A DNA stretch of 64,000 bases from an uncultured Gammaproteobacteria bacterium (GTDB taxonomy: Bacteria > Patescibacteriota > Microgenomatia > UBA10105 > UBA927): contig CAZVTT010000002.1 of the NCBI GenBank assembly GCA_964629685.1, forward strand, positions 120,039-184,038, given 5' to 3'. Shown one piece after another: positions 56,914-64,000 of the stretch. Positions within the stretch are counted from its first letter, which is position 1, and the number at the start of each line of letters is the position of its first letter. The translations under genes and the position numbers were made by a program. Below the pieces are notes generated by a model that ran no database searches, was not told where the DNA came from, and saw only the letters and a program-made list of their open reading frames with translations.

Positions 56914-57018
56914 TACTTAATTTCCGTCATTTCGCTGACTTCTGCGATACACTTTGAGGTTGGTGAAGTCTCATGCGGACGTGTATGGCCAGATGGTACG
57001 ACACCTTGAAAGGTTCTG

Positions 57019-57558
57019 TCAAGCAGTTTTGTGTACTTTTGTTGCGGGTACGCGAAACGCATACACATGTAAATCCTTGTCTTCGGACAGAATTTTCCAA
57101 TCGGGAAAAATAAAGCTATTGGAAATTACCCGCGTCCCGGGCTTAAGGTCCCGCATGAGTTTTTCCTGTAGTGCCTTCATTCTCCATGGGAGAAGATATA
57201 CAAACACCGCGTCCGCATCCTTAATCTCAGCAGTCCAGAAGTTGGACCATTTGGTTTTTGCCTTTTTACGATAGGGAGTAAACCAGGATCTGATAGTTGA
57301 GTACCATACCAAAAAAAGATTAATTTCATATCCGGTTGCTACTACTCCCCGTGCTGCAGCTGCGAACAGCAGTCGTCCGTCACCGGATCCCAGGTCATAT
57401 ATTTTTTCACCCGGTTGCAGTTTTGCTAACTCAATCATTTTTTGTGTTGTAGACGGTGTAGACGGTACAAAGGGAGCGCCCGTTACAAACGCCAAACATA
57501 AAAAAATAAAGAGACACAGAAACAGAAATTGAAACACGATAAATAGTACGTCGATCAT
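57019..57558 (-). CDS. Class I SAM-dependent methyltransferase with N-terminal membrane anchor
   Basis: DLGSGDGRL motif I after a hydrophobic N-terminus. Confidence 0.6.
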   Translation of the reverse strand: MIDVLFIVFQFLFLCLFIFLCLAFVTGAPFVPSTPSTTQKMIELAKLQPGEKIYDLGSGDGRLLFAAAARGVVATGYEINLFLVWYSTIRSWFTPYRKKAKTKWSNFWTAEIKDADAVFVYLLPWRMKALQEKLMRDLKPGTRVISNSFIFPDWKILSEDKDLHVYAFRVPATKVHKTA

Positions 57559-57806
57559 AGTGATGATTTTAGATAGTGAGTATCAGTTTGATTTATATTG
57601 TTCAGCTTGACTGGGCATGCAATAGTATTTTACTATTGGTCACATCTGTGAGTGGCAATAATTAATGTTGCGTAAATTACAGTGTGATTGTACTAACTTT
57701 ATGAGTCAACCTGCCTTGACCATTATAGCGCGTTTTTCTATTTTTTCTTCACTACCTACGCTATCTTCGCATATTCATAACCTTATACGAAGGGAGGTGA
57801 AAAATA

Positions 57807-58412
57807 ATGGAATTTAAACGAATCAGTGCAGGAATCGCATCTGCATCCCTTATTGCTACCCTACTGGCTCCTGCGGCTTTTGCAGAGACCACGGTAACGG
57901 TTGAAGGAAACGGTGCCGATTCTCATAATGTGGTTGAATTAACCACAGCAAACACTACTACCGTGGATGTTATAACGGAAACAAATGTCAGTAATAAAGT
58001 AAAAACTACAGCCAATTCCGGCAATAACAAAGCCAGTGGTAACACCGGCGACGGAAACGTGACGGTAGGTTCCGGAGATGCAACCGCAACCACAACTGTT
58101 ACTACGCTGGTAGGCGGTACATCTGTAACCGTCGAAGGCAATTGCGGCTGCGAGAAAGATACAGACGTAACCGTAAAAGGTAATGGTGTAGATTCTTACT
58201 CAAAAGTAAAACTGAATAATACTAACGCCAAAGCTGTTGGTGTTGCTGCGTCCGCTAAGGTTAAATCCAAAGTTAAGACAAAAGCGAAATCAGGTAAGAA
58301 TATTGCCAAGAACAACACTGGCGTGGGAGACACCGATGTTTCATCAGGTGACGCAACCAGTGATACAACTATTGATACTGTTGTTGAACCAACAACCGTA
58401 TCGGTAAAGTAA
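57807..58412 (+). CDS. Secreted repeat protein (paralog family A; 2 repeat units, no anchor)
   Basis: Signal peptide (…APAAFA|ETT), two units of a GNGxDSxNxVxL…NSGNNxAxGNTGxGxVxVGSGDAxA repeat and an NCGCE Cys pair. GGGAGGTGAAAAATAATG RBS context. Confidence 0.75.
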   Translation: MEFKRISAGIASASLIATLLAPAAFAETTVTVEGNGADSHNVVELTTANTTTVDVITETNVSNKVKTTANSGNNKASGNTGDGNVTVGSGDATATTTVTTLVGGTSVTVEGNCGCEKDTDVTVKGNGVDSYSKVKLNNTNAKAVGVAASAKVKSKVKTKAKSGKNIAKNNTGVGDTDVSSGDATSDTTIDTVVEPTTVSVK

Positions 58413-58429
58413 GTTTGATTGTAGTATTA

Positions 58430-58468
58430 AAAAAGCCCTGCCTATATCGTTATCGGGTAGGGCTTTTT
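58430..58468. terminator. Bidirectional rho-independent terminator
   Basis: AAAAA-GCCCTGCC-loop-GGGTAGGGC-TTTTT between convergent genes. Confidence 0.7.
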
Positions 58469-58474
58469 CGTGGA

Positions 58475-59200
58475 TTAAGGCCGATAGGGTTTTGCAGATA
58501 CTATTAACCGTTTGCTGTCCAAAAATCCGCTACAGGTGAACAGCGTTAACGTTTCTTCTTTGGTAGGAGCAATTACCATAACATCGTTCGGATTTACCAG
58601 TTTAGTCGTGGTTACCTGATATCGGTGCCAACTGTCTTTTGTCAAAATATACACCAGCGCATCTGATTTAATATTGCGGAGAGGGAGAAACAATTTTTCC
58701 CTGGCATGCGCAAAAATAACGATGTTTCCGTTTTGTCCCGGGTTTGCGGTACCGGCCCCATGTGATGCCGTTGTTTCGGAGAGTTCCCAGAAACCGTTTA
58801 TAATTTTTGCTTCTTTTATAGAAATATCTATTTCCAGGGAAGGAATAATGATTCTGAGCGGAGCCTGAACGGACGTGCCGGTTGTAAGTAATTTTTGATC
58901 AATCCTAAATCCTGATAATGCAGGGCTTACGGAAGCTGAATCGCTCGCAGCCGGAGCCTCCCGTACAGATCCGCTTGCCCGGCTTTCCGTAAAATTCCGA
59001 TACGCAGTGGGAAAAAGGATAAAAAGAATGGCTGCCAGCACCAATATAAGCACCGCGTATTTACTCAGAAGTGTCGGAAATCCGCGTACGGTCTTACTAT
59101 CCGGTGGCAGAGCGGTTGGGCTGGGTTTATCTTTGCGACGTTTCGGTTTTATCCGTGAAGTGCGCGCTGTCGCGCTAACCGAGCGGCGAGGCCGAGGCAT
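58475..59200 (-). CDS. Sortase-family transpeptidase
   Basis: Basic N-terminus, a TM anchor, the catalytic His context GNIVIFAHAREK, the TLxTC motif (ETLTLFTCSGF) and a downstream Arg. Confidence 0.75.
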   Translation of the reverse strand: MPRPRRSVSATARTSRIKPKRRKDKPSPTALPPDSKTVRGFPTLLSKYAVLILVLAAILFILFPTAYRNFTESRASGSVREAPAASDSASVSPALSGFRIDQKLLTTGTSVQAPLRIIIPSLEIDISIKEAKIINGFWELSETTASHGAGTANPGQNGNIVIFAHAREKLFLPLRNIKSDALVYILTKDSWHRYQVTTTKLVNPNDVMVIAPTKEETLTLFTCSGFLDSKRLIVSAKPYRP

Positions 59201-59760
59201 AGGGTTCCTGCAATATAAAAGAGTGTATCGGTAATAGGAGTTCCGCTGGTTGCCGCTAATCCGAGTATCTCCGGACCTGCCGATCCGCCGCCGATACCTC
59301 CGGAATTATTGTTTGAACCGCCATTACCGGAATTTGAGTTATTATTGGTTGGATTATTTCCCGATCCGGATGTGGGGGTCGGAGTGCCGGATGTTTGCGT
59401 CGGGGTTGGTGTAAGCGGTTTTTTGCTGGGCGTTGGTGTACCACAGCATCCTACGGTGGCGGAATTTTGATTTACGGTATTGGTAACGTTTATATTTACT
59501 TCAGAATCACCTGTTTTAATTGTGGTATTCCCTTTATTTCCGTTGGCTGAATTTCCGCCCGTATTTGCGTTTGCATCGACGGTAGTTTTAATAGTAGCCG
59601 TATTGTGCTGCTGGACCGAATTGTTACTGGTGGAATTTAACTGAATGGAGTTCTGTGTACCCTGACCATTTCCTTCTATACTGAGTGATTCCGCAAATAC
59701 GGATTGAACGGTAATCAGTGTAAAACTCAGTATCAGTCCTGCAAACAACCAGTTACGCAT
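59149..59760 (-). CDS. Cell-surface repeat protein (family A, 1 unit) with Pro/Thr linker and C-terminal sorting signal
   Basis: Signal peptide from the ATG at 59760 (MRNWLFAGLILSFTLITVQSVFA). One repeat unit, a GCCGT Cys pair and a TPTPS linker. C-terminal LGLAATSG, then hydrophobic helix, then RLARQR. Confidence 0.65.
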   Translation of the reverse strand: MRNWLFAGLILSFTLITVQSVFAESLSIEGNGQGTQNSIQLNSTSNNSVQQHNTATIKTTVDANANTGGNSANGNKGNTTIKTGDSEVNINVTNTVNQNSATVGCCGTPTPSKKPLTPTPTQTSGTPTPTSGSGNNPTNNNSNSGNGGSNNNSGGIGGGSAGPEILGLAATSGTPITDTLFYIAGTLCLGLAARLARQRALHG

Positions 59761-59788
59761 AGGTAATTTACGTTGAGCAGGTACGTGC

Positions 59789-62062
59789 TTATGAGGCAGT
59801 GGACAGCAGTCGTCGTTTGATTCGCAGAATTGCAAATCTGACAGCGACCAGAAGTATACCACAGGGGATTGCCAGAATCAACCAAGCCAGGTTTATCTGT
59901 ACTACCCGTTTGCCGGCTACAGTGGGTTCCGGCGTGATTACGGCGTTACTCGTGGTATCACCTGTGGTGAAAGCAGCTACTTCACCTTCTGTCTGACTTG
60001 TTTTAGTCGAACCAGCTACTGTTTTACCGGTACCTCCTACCTTGACCGATTTGGGTGTCGGGGTAGGTGTAATACCCACTTTTGTTGTGGCAGTGGTTTC
60101 GTTTGACGAACTGTTGGGTGTGGGTGTCGGTGTAGGCGTATTTGTCGCTTGTACCTGAACGTTTGTTCCACTGATTGCCTGTGTGTTTTCCGGTGCAGCT
60201 GCGACTGATTTGGTTTCTTTATGAGCTCCCGGCGTCACGAAGTCTCCCAGCCAGCTGCCGAACACGTTTACTACGGTTACTACCAGTTTCCCGTTCCCGA
60301 CAATATTATTGTTTACGAAGTTCACCATGTTGGCAATGATGTTGGCGTCGCCCGTTTTAATGGATGAATTGCCGCCCGTGTTATTGCTGCTGTCATTTCC
60401 GCCTGAATTGGCCGACAAATCAAGGTTGTTTACTATATTAGCGGTGTTCGTTTGTACGGTAGTGTTTGAATTTGTATTCGTGACCGAACCGGTATTGGTG
60501 GAATTTGAGCCGTTTCCGTTATTTGAAGCGGTAATTTCACCTGCGGGAGATACATTAAACTCGGTTCCGGCTGAACCAGCCAGATTGTCTGCGCCTGATT
60601 CTCCGCCGATGATCCGCCCGACCCAGTTTCCGGCTTCATTTACCAACACTAACCACCAGTTTCCGCCGTCGACGTTGTTATTGGCAACGTTTAGTACGTT
60701 GGCATCAATTGTGGTATTGCCGGTGTCTATTTTAGTGTCCCCTCCGGTATTTCCTCCGGCCGTGTTATTCCCGGTTTGGGTGTCTAATGTCAGGACATTT
60801 TCGATAGTTGCATCGTTGTATTGAAAGGTAGAGTCGCTGTTAGATGTGCTTACGGCTGCGTTATTTTCTGATCCGGATCCGTTTCCGGTATTGGCGACTC
60901 CGGTTGATCCGGTTCCGCAGCAGGAATTTGCTAACAGTTCTTCAGGAAACAGGATGTCTCCTACCAGGTCGCCGTAAATATTTACGACTCCATAGAGTAC
61001 ATTCCCCGCAATGTTGTTGTTGGCGAAGGTTAACACGTTTGCGGATACATTGGCGTCTCCGGTTTTTATAGTTGAATCCCCACCGGTATTTCCGCTGGCT
61101 GAGTTATCTCCGGAATTTGAATCCAGTACTAATGTATTCCCGATCGTAGCGTCATTGTTTTGGAAAGTGGCTTTATCCGAACTGGTATCTATGTTTGCCG
61201 TATTATCCGAACCTGTGCCGTTTTTTTGATTTGTCGCTTCTAGAGATCCATTGTCGCATCCCGTGAGACAACCTGCTCCGAAATCAAGCACAATGTCACC
61301 GGTGTGATCGTCATTAACGTTAAATTCAGAAACCATTACGCCGTCTACGTTTGTATTGACTGCAGTAATAATTGTACCCGATGTGTTGGCGTCTCCGGTG
61401 GAAATGGCAGAAGAACCTACATTGTTATCCGCATTATTTTTTCCGGTGGTAGTGTTTTGTTCTAGGTCATTGTTTACACTGGCAGAGTTATCCTGAACGG
61501 TTGTTGATGAATCGCTGATTTGTGCTGAACTATCGTTGTCTGAATTTGATCCGTTTCCGGTATTGGAAACACCGATACTTCCGTCTTCTCCTCCGACGGG
61601 AACTACTGCGCTATTGTTGTTTCCGGTAGTAATAATGGCGGCATCGTTTGTGGCGTCTCCGGTTTTAATTTCGGTATCTCCGGTCGTACCGCTTTGTGTC
61701 TGCCCGTCAGTTGTTGCCGTTTGAGTCTGTTCCGGTGTCGGAGTAGTCGTAGGCGACGGTGTGGACGTTGTGTTTTGTTGTGTGCTGGGTGTTTCCGGCG
61801 CTTCGGTCGGTCGCGGTCTTCTGGTTGGAGTTGGTGATGGTTCATTTGCAGGCGTCGGTTCTGTTGTGGGTTCTGCCGGATGGGACGGTGATGAAGGTAC
61901 TTCCGGTGTCGATGGAGCTGTCGGAGCTGTCGGCGCATCCGGAGTAGTCGGAACAACAGGGACATCAGGTACGTCAATAGCACCTACTATGCTGACATTT
62001 TGGCTGAGTAACAGTACGACTATTACGAAGCTCGCCAGTAATTTTTTGAATGATTGTTTCAT
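59789..62062 (-). CDS. Large cell-surface repeat protein (family A, ~5 units) with mucin-like Pro/Thr linkers and C-terminal sorting signal
   Basis: Signal peptide and a PT-rich N-terminal linker (PTAPTAPSTP…). Repeated NTGNGSxSxN…TGxNxAxGNTGGDxxIKTGDANxxANVL…NNNI units. Cys pairs (GCLTGCD, SCCGT). C-terminus TPEPTVAGKR then TM then RIKRR. Start set at ATG 62062; the listed start is a TTG. Confidence 0.7.
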   Translation of the reverse strand: MKQSFKKLLASFVIVVLLLSQNVSIVGAIDVPDVPVVPTTPDAPTAPTAPSTPEVPSSPSHPAEPTTEPTPANEPSPTPTRRPRPTEAPETPSTQQNTTSTPSPTTTPTPEQTQTATTDGQTQSGTTGDTEIKTGDATNDAAIITTGNNNSAVVPVGGEDGSIGVSNTGNGSNSDNDSSAQISDSSTTVQDNSASVNNDLEQNTTTGKNNADNNVGSSAISTGDANTSGTIITAVNTNVDGVMVSEFNVNDDHTGDIVLDFGAGCLTGCDNGSLEATNQKNGTGSDNTANIDTSSDKATFQNNDATIGNTLVLDSNSGDNSASGNTGGDSTIKTGDANVSANVLTFANNNIAGNVLYGVVNIYGDLVGDILFPEELLANSCCGTGSTGVANTGNGSGSENNAAVSTSNSDSTFQYNDATIENVLTLDTQTGNNTAGGNTGGDTKIDTGNTTIDANVLNVANNNVDGGNWWLVLVNEAGNWVGRIIGGESGADNLAGSAGTEFNVSPAGEITASNNGNGSNSTNTGSVTNTNSNTTVQTNTANIVNNLDLSANSGGNDSSNNTGGNSSIKTGDANIIANMVNFVNNNIVGNGKLVVTVVNVFGSWLGDFVTPGAHKETKSVAAAPENTQAISGTNVQVQATNTPTPTPTPNSSSNETTATTKVGITPTPTPKSVKVGGTGKTVAGSTKTSQTEGEVAAFTTGDTTSNAVITPEPTVAGKRVVQINLAWLILAIPCGILLVAVRFAILRIKRRLLSTAS

Positions 62063-62186
62063 AGTGTCCTGTCTCAATCCCGCACCACTATTGTGTGGGA
62101 TCGATACAAAGCCCTATATATTTATCTCTTTGTTCGTAGGGTGTCCCGCCGAAGTGAAGCGAGACTACCCTACGAACCTCTAGAGA

Positions 62187-63431
62187 TTAGTTACCTAGTA
62201 AAGCCATCAATTGACTCAAGCTCAACGAAACGTTGAAATTGAAATCAAATTCAGGTACTTCCCAGCCGCCTACGTCACCGTAGACGTTAACATTTCCGGA
62301 ATTTCCGATTTCTGTTGTGGAAGTGGCACTACCGGTATCGATGGAAGGATCTCCACCGTATACTGATCCGGTATTGTCATCTGCATCGTTTTTGCCAGTT
62401 GTGGCATCTGCGTCAGCGTCGTTGTAAAGTCTGGCTTCGTTTCCTGCGCCTTCTTTACCACCTTGGAAGACTTCAACAGCGTCGTCAAAGTAACCTTTGA
62501 TTTCGTTGTCTGAGTCGGTTCCGTTTCCGCCTACCTTTGCAGAGATATCCAGCAAGCATCCGCAGTCAACTTCGGCTGCGTTGAAATTGACCATGTTGTC
62601 GATAGTTACATCAGCGGTCGCGTCACCCGTATCTACTGATACTTCTCCACCGGTGTTGTCATCGGCTTCGTTGTATCCTGTATCTGCGCCTGCATCTACG
62701 TGATTTTTCACTGATGCAAAGTTATCCTGCACTACTGCAGTTTCGTGATCGAGATCCAATTTGATTTCATTATCGCTGTATGATCCGTTTCCGAGAATTT
62801 TGGCAGAGACTTCGCCACTCTGGTCTCCGGCACCACCACCTACTTGTGCTTTGTTAGCATTCGCGGTTGTGGATACGGTTACCGTTGTATCGGCATCTCC
62901 GGTATTGATTTCTACATCACCACCGGTATTGTCATCTGCATCATTCTTTCCGGTCTTTGCATCTGCGTCGATTTTGTTTTCGACTTTAGCTGCATTGTCT
63001 TGGAAGACGCTAGTCTTGTTGTCCTGATCAAGTTCAACTTTATTGTCGGACTTGGTTCCGTTTCCACTGATGAGAACATCAGTATCGCCGGCTTGGCAAC
63101 ATTCGACTTTAGCCTCGTTGGTGTTCAGGTTGTTGGATACGGAGACGTCTGTCTTAGCATCACCTGTGTCAACCTTTACATCTCCACCGGTATTATCACT
63201 GGCGCTGTTGTTTCCTGTATCAGCGTTTGCGCTGACTTTGTTGGTTACAACTGCGCTGTTGTTCTGAACAACTGTTGTCGTGTTGTCACGATCTAACTTG
63301 ATTTCGCTGTCAGAGTTGGATCCGTTTCCACTAACTTCGAGAGTTGTAGAAGCGGCAACCGGAGTGACCAAGTTCAAGACCAGTGATCCCGTTGCAAGGA
63401 CGGAAAGTACTTGTCGTTTGAAGTGTGTCAT
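62187..63431 (-). CDS. Secreted repeat protein (family A, 4 tandem ~85-aa units, no anchor)
   Basis: Signal peptide, then four units: GNGxxSDNxIxLDxDxxTxVxQxNxAxVxNxVxAxADTGxNxADDNTGGxVxVDTGDAxxDV. ECCQ and DCGC Cys pairs. AAGGAGGTGAAAAATAATTATG RBS context. Confidence 0.75.
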   Translation of the reverse strand: MTHFKRQVLSVLATGSLVLNLVTPVAASTTLEVSGNGSNSDSEIKLDRDNTTTVVQNNSAVVTNKVSANADTGNNSASDNTGGDVKVDTGDAKTDVSVSNNLNTNEAKVECCQAGDTDVLISGNGTKSDNKVELDQDNKTSVFQDNAAKVENKIDADAKTGKNDADDNTGGDVEINTGDADTTVTVSTTANANKAQVGGGAGDQSGEVSAKILGNGSYSDNEIKLDLDHETAVVQDNFASVKNHVDAGADTGYNEADDNTGGEVSVDTGDATADVTIDNMVNFNAAEVDCGCLLDISAKVGGNGTDSDNEIKGYFDDAVEVFQGGKEGAGNEARLYNDADADATTGKNDADDNTGSVYGGDPSIDTGSATSTTEIGNSGNVNVYGDVGGWEVPEFDFNFNVSLSLSQLMALLGN

Positions 63432-63542
63432 AATTATTTTTCACCTCCTTTCGTTAATAAGATATCCTGACCTAAGTCAGAATCACTTCTTTTCGCCGTT
63501 AACCGATTTATGGCCTGCCCTTTCGGGTACATAAATACGGAA

Positions 63543-63600
63543 AAACGGAGGCTCCTCAACCCTGACAGTATCTGTTCAAGGTGGAGAAGCCTCCGTTCGC
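63543..63600 (-). promoter_or_regulatory. Long imperfect hairpin in the 5' leader of the repeat-protein gene
   Basis: CGGAGGCTCCTCAACC…GGTGGAGAAGCCTCCG, about 15 bp of stem with a ~25-nt loop, lying 110-170 nt upstream of the ATG at 63431. Confidence 0.3.
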
Positions 63601-64000
63601 GGTCAGCTTCGATTTATATTGCGATCAACCACTAACTCAGGGAAGATCGGGGCAGAAGATGATTTGTATACGTTCTATCGACTTTGTTATGGTTAAGAAA
63701 ATATTGTTCTATTTTTATATCTTTGTCAATACCCCAACTGGTGCTATTCGGCAAATATAGTTATCGTACTTGTCCGTTTATATTTTTCCTATTTTGTCTA
63801 TCATCGCTGATGGTTTTTTTTATATTTCTGATCGTGATTTGGGTTACTGTGTTATCCTGGACGTATATTTCCACACTCCCGTACGGGCTAACGTTTTTTA
63901 AGGCTTGTGTTAGCTCTTCGAGTAATCTGGTCGATATAGTTTGCGTCGAGTATGTATTTATCATGCTTGTAGTTTCAAACTACACCGGACATTATTGAAG

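Follow-up and report, generated by a model that had tools for sequence, protein, structure and literature searches.

A cassette of four paralogous genes, A to D, and an intact sortase gene that lies within the cluster and adjoins gene B is carried by the 64-kb stretch of DNA analysed here (the window), as an initial annotation of the sequence had proposed. The cassette is conserved across the lineage of the Microgenomates, a group for which, to our knowledge, neither a cultured representative nor any envelope protein has been described. We judge the chances about even that it is a cell-envelope cassette, building a surface protein structure from paralogs that share one beta-solenoid-like repeat. 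All five open reading frames (ORFs) were found at the positions first assigned to them, and a sixth gene lies upstream of D:

57807-58412, plus strand: gene A, ORF of 201 aa; secreted, without anchor, two units; convergent with the operon
58475-59200, minus strand: sortase gene, ORF of 241 aa with a Pfam Sortase match
59149-59760, minus strand: gene B, ORF of 203 aa from the ATG; signal peptide, one unit, stalk and sorting signal
59789-62062, minus strand: gene C, ORF of 757 aa; signal peptide, four long units and a half unit, TM helix
62187-63431, minus strand: gene D, ORF of 414 aa; secreted, without anchor, four units
63761-63964, minus strand: gene of a DUF2292-family small protein of 67 aa (Pfam E 1.5e-6), upstream of D

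The gene order D, C, B, sortase and then convergent A is kept in 72 loci/genomes from MAGs of Gottesman-, Woese-, Levy-, Davies-, Ames- and Chisholmbacteria, and a homolog of the DUF2292-family neighbour upstream of D is conserved in 59 of the 72. The orthologs have four units in D, four to five in C, one to three in B and two in A. Co-occurrence of the sortase with the repeat family, which the initial annotation had raised as a question, was seen in 37 of the 42 related loci with full flanks, where the sortase usually directly follows B; in the other five, D and C are present and no sortase is nearby. The repeat unit was found in about 3,345 representative protein clusters, and every named match belongs to a Microgenomates-type CPR bacterium. 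The sortase family is reported to be near-ubiquitous in Microgenomates, its substrate not being named (Meheust et al. 2019, PMC6744442). A cassette with a wall-anchoring sortase would explain this near-universal retention.

The repeat unit comprises ~88 aa, is rich in Asn, Thr, Gly and Asp, and is present in two copies in A, one in B, 4.5 in C and four in D, consistent with the one to about five copies per gene counted before. A unit profile matches A, B, C and D with E-values of 1e-27 to 1e-121 and no other ORF of the window, which bears out the common repeat of the four paralogs. Their units can be aligned at 33-55% identity. Units are 84-97 aa long in A, B and D; those of C carry an extra Trp/Gly-rich insert and therefore reach 112-124 aa. 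The computed consensus, GNGxxSDNxxxLxxxNxxxVxQxNxAxVxNxxxxxAxTGxNxAxxNTGGDxxIxTGDA..., agrees with the one initially derived. The units were placed as follows:

63090-63353, 62817-63089, 62553-62816 and 62262-62552, minus strand: units of D, from the unit profile
61583-61708, minus strand: half unit of C, followed by the four long units
61247-61582, 60911-61246, 60539-60910 and 60173-60538, minus strand: long units of C, from the unit profile
59437-59694, minus strand: unit of B, from the unit profile
57885-58157 and 58158-58409, plus strand: units of A, from the unit profile; the second is Lys-rich

Cys pairs had been reported at the unit boundaries and are indeed located there, at residues 113/115 of A, 105/106 of B, 265/269 and 381/382 of C, and 111/112 and 290/292 of D. 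Those of D are invariant or at least 90% conserved in 32 ortholog sequences, and its CGC pair is invariant among 108 sequences. A harbors a CGC pair between its two units, and in nearly all A orthologs the unit boundary is marked by a CxC or CC(C) pair. A role of these pairs as disulfides or metal sites in A-D is plausible. The invariant residues of the unit (Asn, Gly, Thr, Ala, Gln and Cys) occupy alternating or turn positions, which points to a structural repeat pattern rather than an active site.

The five proteins were scanned against Pfam and NCBIfam, and the repeat unit gave no match at E<=1. PDB sequence searches with the D protein and with the unit profile returned no match either. The repeat is thus, as first thought, not a named domain in these resources, and our literature searches brought up no publication on these proteins. 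No Pfam match was obtained for SLH or CWB2 wall-binding domains on A-D, nor for pilin domains or Curlin_rpt in the cassette proteins. RTX beta-roll repeats were likewise not detected: there is no HemolysinCabind/PF00353 match at E<=1, and the GGxGxDxUx nonapeptide is absent from the unit consensus. The suggestion of an adhesin or S-layer-like module is plausible.

The predicted model of D, of moderate confidence only (pLDDT 72, 71.6 before rounding), is all-beta, as expected for the beta-rich repeat anticipated earlier, and resembles beta-solenoids only, and weakly. A Foldseek search of this model against the PDB yielded no match of significance (best E 0.019, TM about 0.05), so "solenoid" denotes a local resemblance; the curli and Fap matches, with E-values of 0.019 and 0.056, were not significant. 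Prediction of a two-unit fragment, an approach proposed at the outset, yielded a model from a 108-sequence alignment, but with a pLDDT of 62.5 it was worse than full-length D. No sequence relation to CsgA was seen: alignment of the unit profile with an approximate sequence of E. coli CsgA gave an hhalign probability of 0.1%.

The sortase matches Pfam PF04203 (peptidase C60) with 77.1 bits against a cut-off of 26.6 (E 1.3e-21) over profile positions 2-124 of 125, and TIGR01076 with 47.1 against a cut-off of 39.35. Its N-terminus comprises a basic tail and then a TM helix from about residue 48. Two catalytic residues were assigned by alignment:

58703-58723, minus strand: IVIFAHA, with sortase His 165
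58532-58546, minus strand: TLFTC, with sortase Cys 223

Together with Arg 231 in SKRLIV, they fall in register with the catalytic positions of class A sortases of known structure. The full-length domain, with the TLxTC and IVIFAHA motifs in register, indicates a genuine sortase and not a frameshift artefact, which had been a concern. The class-specific models suggested for its assignment did not place it: none of the NCBIfam class models passed its cut-off, the best scores being below it (SrtD 50.6/140, class E 49.3/160, class D 47.4/165, class C 46.2/160), and the enzyme is therefore an unclassified sortase. The gene starts inside the 3' end of B, with an overlap of 52 nt here and of 43-55 nt across the subclade. 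The sortase appears to be dedicated to one small cassette and not to many substrates.

B is built from a signal peptide, one unit, a Cys-Cys pair, a Pro/Thr/Gly/Asn-rich stalk and a sorting signal, which is located as follows:

59152-59259, minus strand: B sorting signal with a C-terminal tripartite pattern of L-A-A-T-S-G, hydrophobic helix and RLARQR

The tail reads LAATSG-TPITDT-LFYIAGTLCLGLAA-RLARQRALHG, with the motif, ~20 hydrophobic residues and a basic tail, and the motif peptide, the predicted sortase target, contains EILGLAATSGTP. B is the sole ORF in the 64 kb with this combination. Its pentapeptide, L-A-A-T-S, departs from the canonical L-P-x-T-G: it has no Pro, and Ser stands where canonical signals have Gly. 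B orthologs of most lineages have LPxTG (LPATG, LPVTG, LPITG) at the same place, in keeping with the sorting-signal-like C-terminus perceived earlier. In the window and its relatives the motif reads L-[SA]-x-[TA]-[SAG]-[GS], and some orthologs have Ala instead of Thr (LSAASG, LSAAAG). Neither LPXTG-anchor HMM (Gram_pos_anchor, TIGR01167) matched B or its LPATG orthologs; since even the latter are missed, HMM confirmation of the signal failed. In 44 of 46 pairs, the type of motif agrees with the sortase subfamily (9:1 versus 1:35, Fisher p = 9e-8). This covariation indirectly supports the predicted cleavage of B and its linkage to peptidoglycan, and the proposed anchoring is, on the whole, well supported.

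The C-terminus of B might instead be an ordinary membrane anchor, the sortase serving substrates elsewhere and neighbouring B by chance or co-regulation. The non-canonical motif and the silence of the anchor HMMs would fit such an arrangement, as would our view of the genome, which spans 64 kb only. Yet the adjacency of B and sortase is conserved, with its 43-55 nt overlap in the subclade, canonical LPxTG occurs at the same position in B orthologs, and the motif changes in step with the sortase subfamily; we hold this explanation to be highly improbable. Nor do we give much credence to a sortase acting as a class C-like ligase or polymerase that couples the B signal either to B itself or to a Lys in a second protein of the cassette, yielding covalent fibres in the manner of class C sortases and pilins. 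Sortases of the LPxTG lineages do score highest on the class C (pilus) model, at 59-70 bits, and D contains one near-invariant Lys, K299 (within LAKIAGNG, just past the CGC pair). These scores, however, are all far below the 160-bit cut-off, the window sortase scores highest for classes D and E, the cassette proteins contain no pilin motif, and the sorting signal is on B only, though each subunit of a sortase-built pilus needs one. The sortase most likely fixes B to the cell wall.

The initial annotation had grouped the tails of B and C. Both indeed have a hydrophobic helix and a basic tail, but a sortase-type motif is present in B only. C begins with a signal peptide and a Pro/Thr-rich region, and its end is organized as follows:

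59792-59896, minus strand: terminal part of C, with INLAW motif, TM helix and RIKRR tail, preceded by a linker after the units

The motif (K/R)-x-x-x-I-N-L-A-W is found at the start of the C-terminal TM helix in all ~65 C orthologs, none of which has an LPxTG-like motif at this helix. TPEPTVAG was considered as a sorting motif of C and rejected, as it is not conserved among these orthologs. A second sortase substrate of B's kind is thus not supported for C, which probably ends in an ordinary C-terminal TM helix; judging from the sequences, B alone looks like a sortase substrate in the cassette.

The outer paralogs A and D have no anchor at either C-terminus, as previously described. D (pI 4.05, net charge -48) ends in a conserved FDFxFN..SLSLSxL helix and has more than 790 full-length homologs of 45-60% identity, all annotated "hypothetical". 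It is a candidate major subunit. The paralogs could also be independent surface or secreted proteins, such as host adhesins or substrate binders, with the sortase anchoring only B, C separate, D and A soluble, and the repeat shared by common descent. The fold matches of D include many monomeric beta-helix adhesins, namely FHA, Hap, UpaB, TibA, PfbA and Bacteroides putative adhesins, and A evolves much faster than D (36-48% versus 50-60% identity), as host-facing proteins do. Moreover, CPR bacteria are thought to be episymbionts, which would need attachment factors (PMC6744442). D is nevertheless unusually conserved for an exposed adhesin (median 49%, up to 60% across candidate phyla), and gene order and anchor types do not vary between lineages, which fits a multi-part machine better than unrelated adhesins. 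Independent proteins seem to us possible but rather unlikely.

Exactly two copies of a 16-mer, GGAGGTGAAAAATAAT, are present in the window (0.01 expected), one before A and one before D, with a register to the ATG that differs by 3 nt between them. The ribosome-binding context described as common to both genes is thus present, with this small shift. The Shine-Dalgarno (SD) sequence is perfect for D and A, whereas C is preceded by AGGA only, no such site stands before B, and the AGGA of the sortase lies inside B. From these signals, and from the stable hairpin conserved between D and C, we infer that D and A are expressed above C, B and the sortase.

In the model that we favor, A, B, C and D would all be exported via Sec, B being made at low level. 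The membrane sortase, adjacent to and translationally coupled with B, would cleave it within L-A-A-T-S-G, probably after Thr, and would then link it covalently to peptidoglycan, so that the Pro/Thr/Gly-rich stalk would hold one repeat unit outside the wall. The C-terminal helix of C would keep it in the membrane. The two paralogs without anchor, the acidic D with its four units and the neutral to basic A with its two, would be made in excess and would dock on one another and on the units of B and C; the Cys pairs at the unit boundaries may stabilise the resulting coat or fibre. Homotypic co-assembly is proposed here by analogy and from the shared units, and the stoichiometry is putative too.

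The D gene is flanked by conserved RNA elements:

62127-62182, minus strand: RNA hairpin directly 3' of the D stop codon, between D and C, supported by covariance
63433-63607, minus strand: conserved 5' leader of D
63589-63607, minus strand: conserved 19-mer GCUGACCGCGAACGGAGGC in the leader
to about 63541, minus strand: conserved terminator-like hairpin and U-tract in the leader
about 63483-63489, minus strand: GAAGUGA in the leader, complementary to the 3' hairpin loop
63464-63482, minus strand: small hairpin in the leader, between GAAGUGA and the SD
63433-63448, minus strand: SD of D, GGAGGUGA, a perfect Shine-Dalgarno

The 3' hairpin is conserved and stable, with an outer stem GUAGGGU/ACCCUAC and a covarying inner stem of 7 bp. 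Its loop harbors an invariant CACUU(C), whose GCACUUC form is complementary to the conserved GAAGUGC of the D 5' leader; the predicted accessibility of the latter is only mildly higher than the leader average (0.62 versus 0.54). Rfam 15 gave no match at E<=1 over 57000-64000. A general terminator type was rejected for the hairpin: searched across the window and 1.09 Mb of related loci, its covariance model detected no further copy. The complementarity may alternatively reflect two inverted protein-binding sites in the DNA. In hok mRNA, the 5' and 3' ends pair in a fold-back (fbi/tac) structure. Likewise, the D mRNA has a 3'-terminal element complementary to an element of its own 5' leader, but here a 7-nt hairpin loop would pair with a single-stranded 5' motif. 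A further possibility, which we consider rather unlikely, is that D is the long-sought major envelope protein of OP11/Microgenomates cells, a new beta-solenoid, amyloid-like module that self-assembles as a coat or fibre nucleated on a sortase-anchored paralog, with an mRNA under the control of a new pair of RNA elements, a leader attenuator and a 3' hairpin with a loop kissing the 5' leader.

The cassette is reminiscent of the chaplins of Streptomyces, of which the long ChpA-C, with LAxTG signals, are wall-anchored and the short ChpD-H are secreted and polymerise on them, with class E sortases. In both systems, paralogs share one domain and some carry a sortase signal while others are free, Cys pairs are conserved, and Ala replaces Pro in the signal (LAATS in B). 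However, the cassette proteins have no sequence relation to chaplins and no Pfam chaplin match, their unit is ~88 aa, hydrophilic, acidic and Asn-rich whereas the chaplin domain is 40 aa and hydrophobic, they add the membrane-anchored paralog C, and the window sortase is under the class E cut-off (49 vs 160 bits). Unlike curli, with CsgA as major subunit and CsgB as nucleator, the cassette has no CsgG-type outer-membrane secretion, and anchoring would be by sortase. Gram-positive LPXTG proteins share with B the signal peptide, repeats, Pro/Thr-rich stalk, motif, hydrophobic helix and basic tail, and Gram-positive housekeeping systems share the adjacent membrane sortase with a His-Cys-Arg triad; the differences are the L-[SA]-x-[TA]-[SAG]-[GS] motif of this lineage and a sortase that fits no defined class. 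In contrast to RTX/beta-roll S-layer proteins such as Caulobacter RsaA, the cassette proteins have a Sec signal peptide and not type I secretion, and anchoring would not be through LPS. Sortase-assembled pili differ in that the cassette has a sorting signal on B only.

With about 3,300 clusters, the repeat represents a protein domain family that neither Pfam nor NCBIfam contains, and the cassette gives the near-universal Microgenomates sortase a specific candidate substrate, with two motif variants that switch with the enzyme. The sortase/motif pairs (LPxTG vs LSxTSG) could serve as orthogonal ligation tools. We know of almost no RNA regulators in Microgenomates, and the elements flanking D represent a candidate new cis-regulatory motif. 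The cassette also offers a candidate for a major surface component, at which cryo-ET, metaproteomics and cell sorting with antibodies or FISH could be aimed. If the above reading of D as the major envelope protein is true, D would be the Gram-positive-type equivalent of chaplins and curli, and a trait central to an entire CPR superphylum.

All five open reading frames proposed in the initial annotation are present in the window, and the initial observation is confirmed. Four of them (A, B, C and D) encode secreted paralogs built from a unit of about 88 residues rich in Asn, Thr, Gly and Asp, and the fifth encodes a sortase. These genes and the elements that accompany them are arranged as follows, where L073 is the Logan contig of the window's own genome.

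57807-58412, plus strand: gene A, 201 aa, 2 units
58475-59200, minus strand: sortase gene, 241 aa
59149-59760, minus strand: gene B, 203 aa counted from the ATG, 1 unit
59789-62062, minus strand: gene C, 757 aa, 4 units and a C-terminal half unit
62127-62182, minus strand: very stable hairpin immediately after the D stop codon
62187-63431, minus strand: gene D, 414 aa, 4 units
about 63483-63489, minus strand: D leader motif, able to pair with the hairpin loop at about 62150-62157 (minus strand)
63541-63607, minus strand: nearly invariant leader element AGCUGACCGC(A/G)AACGGAGGC (AGCUGACCGCRAACGGAGGC), leading into a hairpin of terminator type that has a U-tract; upstream of D
63761-63964, minus strand: gene for a 67-aa DUF2292-family protein (Pfam E 1.5e-6), directly upstream of D; in 59 of 72 related loci
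L073:825-1541: single-pass membrane protein of roughly 240 aa with a beta-rich ectodomain; in 69 of 72 loci
L073:186-680: Pro/Thr-rich secreted protein of roughly 165 aa; in 39 loci

On direct reading, each of the four repeat proteins starts with a plausible Sec-type signal peptide (...AFA/E, ...VFA/E, ...VGA/I and ...VAA/S). When the proteins were cut into units and aligned, the units of A, B, C and D shared 33-55% identity, and the computed consensus agrees with the one written out initially. A profile of the unit matches only A, B, C and D in the 64-kb window (E 1e-27 to 1e-121). An extra Gly/Trp/Val-rich insert in each unit of C makes these units longer than the rest, at 112-124 aa. The Cys pairs noticed earlier at the unit boundaries are real. 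Those of D are CC at 111/112 and CGC at 290/292; the latter is invariant among 108 sequences, and in a set of 32 sequences each of the four Cys is either invariant or conserved in at least 90%. An inter-unit boundary pair, CxC or CC(C), was found in nearly all A orthologs. Comparison of orthologs shows Asn, Gly, Thr, Ala, Gln and Cys as the invariant residues; they occupy alternating or turn positions, a sequence pattern that has the look of a stacked structural repeat.

The unit had been described as no named domain, and this is borne out. Searches of A, B, C and D against Pfam and NCBIfam returned nothing at E<=1, PDB sequences gave no match to D or to the unit profile, and a literature search found no paper describing these repeat proteins. 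When 1.84 billion representative proteins were searched exhaustively with the profile, 3,345 clusters with the unit were retrieved at E<=1e-3; 2,279 pass E<=1e-10, and 809 pass E<=1e-30. Almost all fall into one of two architectures, D-type (400-510 aa, 4-5 units) or C-type (700-840 aa, 5 units). Named homologs are all "hypothetical protein" from Patescibacteria or Microgenomates MAGs (Gottesman-, Ames-, Woese-, Levy-, Davies- and Chisholmbacteria). Many records bearing the cassette (among them loci L001, L003 and L019), which come from binchicken and SRP co-assembly TPA entries, have the title "uncultured Gammaproteobacteria bacterium"; from their gene content these are probably mislabelled bins. 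The AlphaFold2 model of D, computed with 32 orthologs, is all-beta and moderately confident (pLDDT 71.6, pTM 0.56), and a two-unit fragment gave a poorer model than full-length D. The highest Foldseek ranks for the D model were CsgA (E 0.019) and FapC (E 0.056), which are not significant (TM about 0.05); FHA, autotransporter passengers and RTX blocks are also listed in the fold comparison. An hhalign comparison of the unit with a manually entered E. coli CsgA sequence showed no relation. Because the all-beta model is moderate, the Foldseek ranks non-significant and hhalign negative, the unit is described as beta-solenoid-like and placed in no known family.

Scanning a single genome for each GTDB species with a pattern derived from D yielded 72 loci. 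Their gene order, determined from ORFs in all six frames with the unit profile and the sortase of the window as queries, is fixed. First comes D, with 4 units in about 415 aa, then C, with 4-5 units in about 750 aa, and B, which has 1 unit in about 200 aa or 3 units in about 385 aa; a sortase (about 185-250 aa) and a convergent A-type gene (2 units in about 200 aa) follow. D is up to 60% identical across candidate phyla (median 49%), A and B about 36%. After an iterated sortase search, the enzyme was present in 57 of 72 loci, and in 37 of the 42 with full 8-kb flanks. Some loci that lack the B-sortase pair downstream of C have a sortase upstream instead; in one of them, L015, it adjoins a 1-unit protein ending in LAVTG. 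A sortase family near-ubiquitous in Microgenomates has been reported, its substrate unnamed (Meheust et al. 2019, PMC6744442). In this genome the membrane protein and the Pro/Thr-rich secreted protein, neither with a Pfam match, lie just past the window end, upstream of D. The neighbour of A at 57019-57558 (minus strand) encodes a DOT1-like SAM methyltransferase (Pfam DOT1 E 2.4e-6) that starts with a membrane helix; it is probably outside the cassette, since homologs occur in only 5 related loci.

The sortase reported initially is intact, with an N-terminal membrane helix and a His/Cys/Arg triad in register with solved sortases. It passes general sortase models and reaches no class cut-off among class-specific models, so that by sequence it fits no defined class; sister-lineage sortases lean weakly to class C. 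We compared C-termini across all orthologs. B orthologs of most lineages carry a canonical sorting signal (LPATG 19, LPVTG 8, LPITG 4, and a few LPMTG, LPETG and LPTTG), followed by a hydrophobic helix and an LRLRSGRSP-like tail. At the LPxTG position, the window and its relatives have G-L-[SA]-x-[TA]-[SAG]-[GS], with LSAASG, LSATSG, LAATSS and LSDTSG as variants and LAATSG in the window's B. Sortases at least 41% identical to the window's enzyme pair with the variant motif and those 23-37% identical with LPxTG (9:1 against 1:35; Fisher p = 9e-8, which overstates independence because the loci are phylogenetically related). A chance neighbourhood of sortase and repeat genes is a rival reading, considered improbable. 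B is the only ORF in the window with a sorting-signal tail. The initial interpretation is supported in part: it stands for B, a likely sortase substrate, and for the unnamed domain, and it does not stand for C. All C orthologs run from (K/R)-x-x-x-[IV]-N-L-A-W straight into a transmembrane helix and basic tail, with no LPxTG-like motif; TPEPTVAG, put forward as the hydrophilic motif at the end of C, was rejected as it is not conserved among them. The outer paralogs do lack anchors: D orthologs end in a conserved P-x-FDF-x-FN-x-SLSLS-x-LL helix without a basic tail, and A has no C-terminal extension.

That these genes form a surface system which depends on the sortase and has B as its substrate is, in our judgment, highly probable. 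A rival reading makes the enzyme a ligase or polymerase that uses Lys 299 of D, possibly the nucleophile if the sortase ligates proteins. This single, nearly invariant Lys (window 62553-62561, minus strand; consensus LAKIAGNG) directly follows the second conserved Cys pair; the sorting signal lies in B. The sortase start codon falls 52 nt inside the 3' end of B (59149-59200, minus strand), and an overlap of 43-55 nt recurs in the subclade, which suggests that the two genes are translationally coupled. The automatic gene call on L073 skipped B altogether.

The transcript of D appears to carry further conserved elements. The 124-nt D-C spacer containing the hairpin folds at -56 kcal/mol (z = -6.5), and the hairpin is found behind D in 55 of the 56 loci inspected. 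Compensatory changes occur at every one of its 15 pairs in an alignment of 51 sequences, with 85.6% of cells paired vs 38-44% with slid partners and a covariation score of 0.564 vs about 0.12 in slid controls; 0 of 500 shuffles reached the observed values. Its loop is invariant CACUU(C) (consensus AGCACUUC), and no U-tract follows the hairpin at the D-C junction. The covariance model has one match in the 64-kb window (50.7 bits, E 1e-11) and, on the plus strand of 64 related loci, a single match per locus, in every case directly behind D, with none elsewhere in 1.09 Mb of related loci. Neither the hairpin nor the leader element matched Rfam.

The loop GCACUUC has an exact complement, GAAGUG(C), in the D 5' leader 50-75 nt before the ATG (52 of 69 loci, about 3 expected). 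Among 64 loci, 53 have both motifs, 6 neither, 5 the 3' motif only and none the 5' motif only. The flanking seventh position is pairable in 51 of 53 (C:G 37, U:G 8, U:A 4, A:U 1, which is the window, and G:U 1); where the loop has A, the 5' partner is U in every case (4/4), and seventh-position pairing exceeds that of shuffles. The duplex would have an energy of -9 to -10 kcal/mol, with modest accessibility of the 5' motif. The two motifs could be inverted 7-bp DNA sites for one protein. We favour an RNA 5'-3' kissing contact, for stability or translational control, because the 3' copy sits in the loop of a covarying stem and G-U pairs occur; this reading is unproven.

Within the leader element, 46 of 72 GTDB loci contain a single copy of the 16-mer GACCGCRAACGGAGGC, placed 145-200 nt ahead of D, and the 19-mer GCTGACCGCRAACGGAGGC, with up to 3 mismatches allowed, has one copy in the window. 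Locus L072 has a second copy (2678-2693) before an A-type gene without a preceding DUF2292 ORF, and the spacing between the U-tract and GAAGUG is only about 12-25 nt in several loci. For these reasons the element looks like part of the D leader, a candidate attenuator or riboregulator, and not only the terminator of the upstream gene. That the DUF2292 protein regulates this leader is speculation.

The near-identical ribosome-binding context of A and D was also noted correctly: the window has two copies of the 16-mer GGAGGTGAAAAATAAT, one ahead of A and the other ahead of D (0.01 expected by chance). Both genes have the perfect 8-nt Shine-Dalgarno sequence GGAGGUGA; C has only AGGA, B none, and the sortase AGGA inside B. 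D is strongly acidic (pI 4.05, net charge -48), as is C (pI 4.1); A is near neutral in the window and most of its orthologs are basic (pI 8.5-10). Together with conservation, these features, all read from sequence, hint at stoichiometry. In the mechanism we propose, B would be the wall-anchored, low-copy paralog, which the sortase would cleave and link to peptidoglycan; the likeliest cleavage site, judged from LPxT|G, follows the Thr of LAATS. C would be membrane-anchored. D and A would be abundant free subunits that dock via the common unit into a coat or fibre, which the conserved boundary Cys pairs would lock; its geometry could be that of a filament or of a lattice. Such homotypic co-assembly is tentative, and we lean slightly away from it; the rival is that the paralogs are independent adhesins. 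For the mechanism as a whole we consider the chances even. An S-layer has reportedly been seen in cryo-TEM of groundwater ultra-small cells, OP11 included. S-layers occur in some members of the phylum (review, PMC13293708).

In its proposed mode of working the cassette resembles three known kinds of machinery. Chaplins likewise comprise paralogs anchored by a sortase alongside free ones, curli pair a major subunit with a paralog bound to the cell, and the third kind is ordinary LPXTG surface proteins. By sequence, the proteins do not qualify as curlin-repeat, chaplin, RTX-repeat, pilin or SLH proteins, and among known families the cassette belongs to the sortase family only. Sortase anchoring of a surface repeat protein is familiar logic. 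Here it is joined by an uncatalogued domain family, a lineage-specific switch of motif and enzyme, undescribed RNA elements, and a fixed multi-paralog cassette as a core trait of a large uncultivated group.
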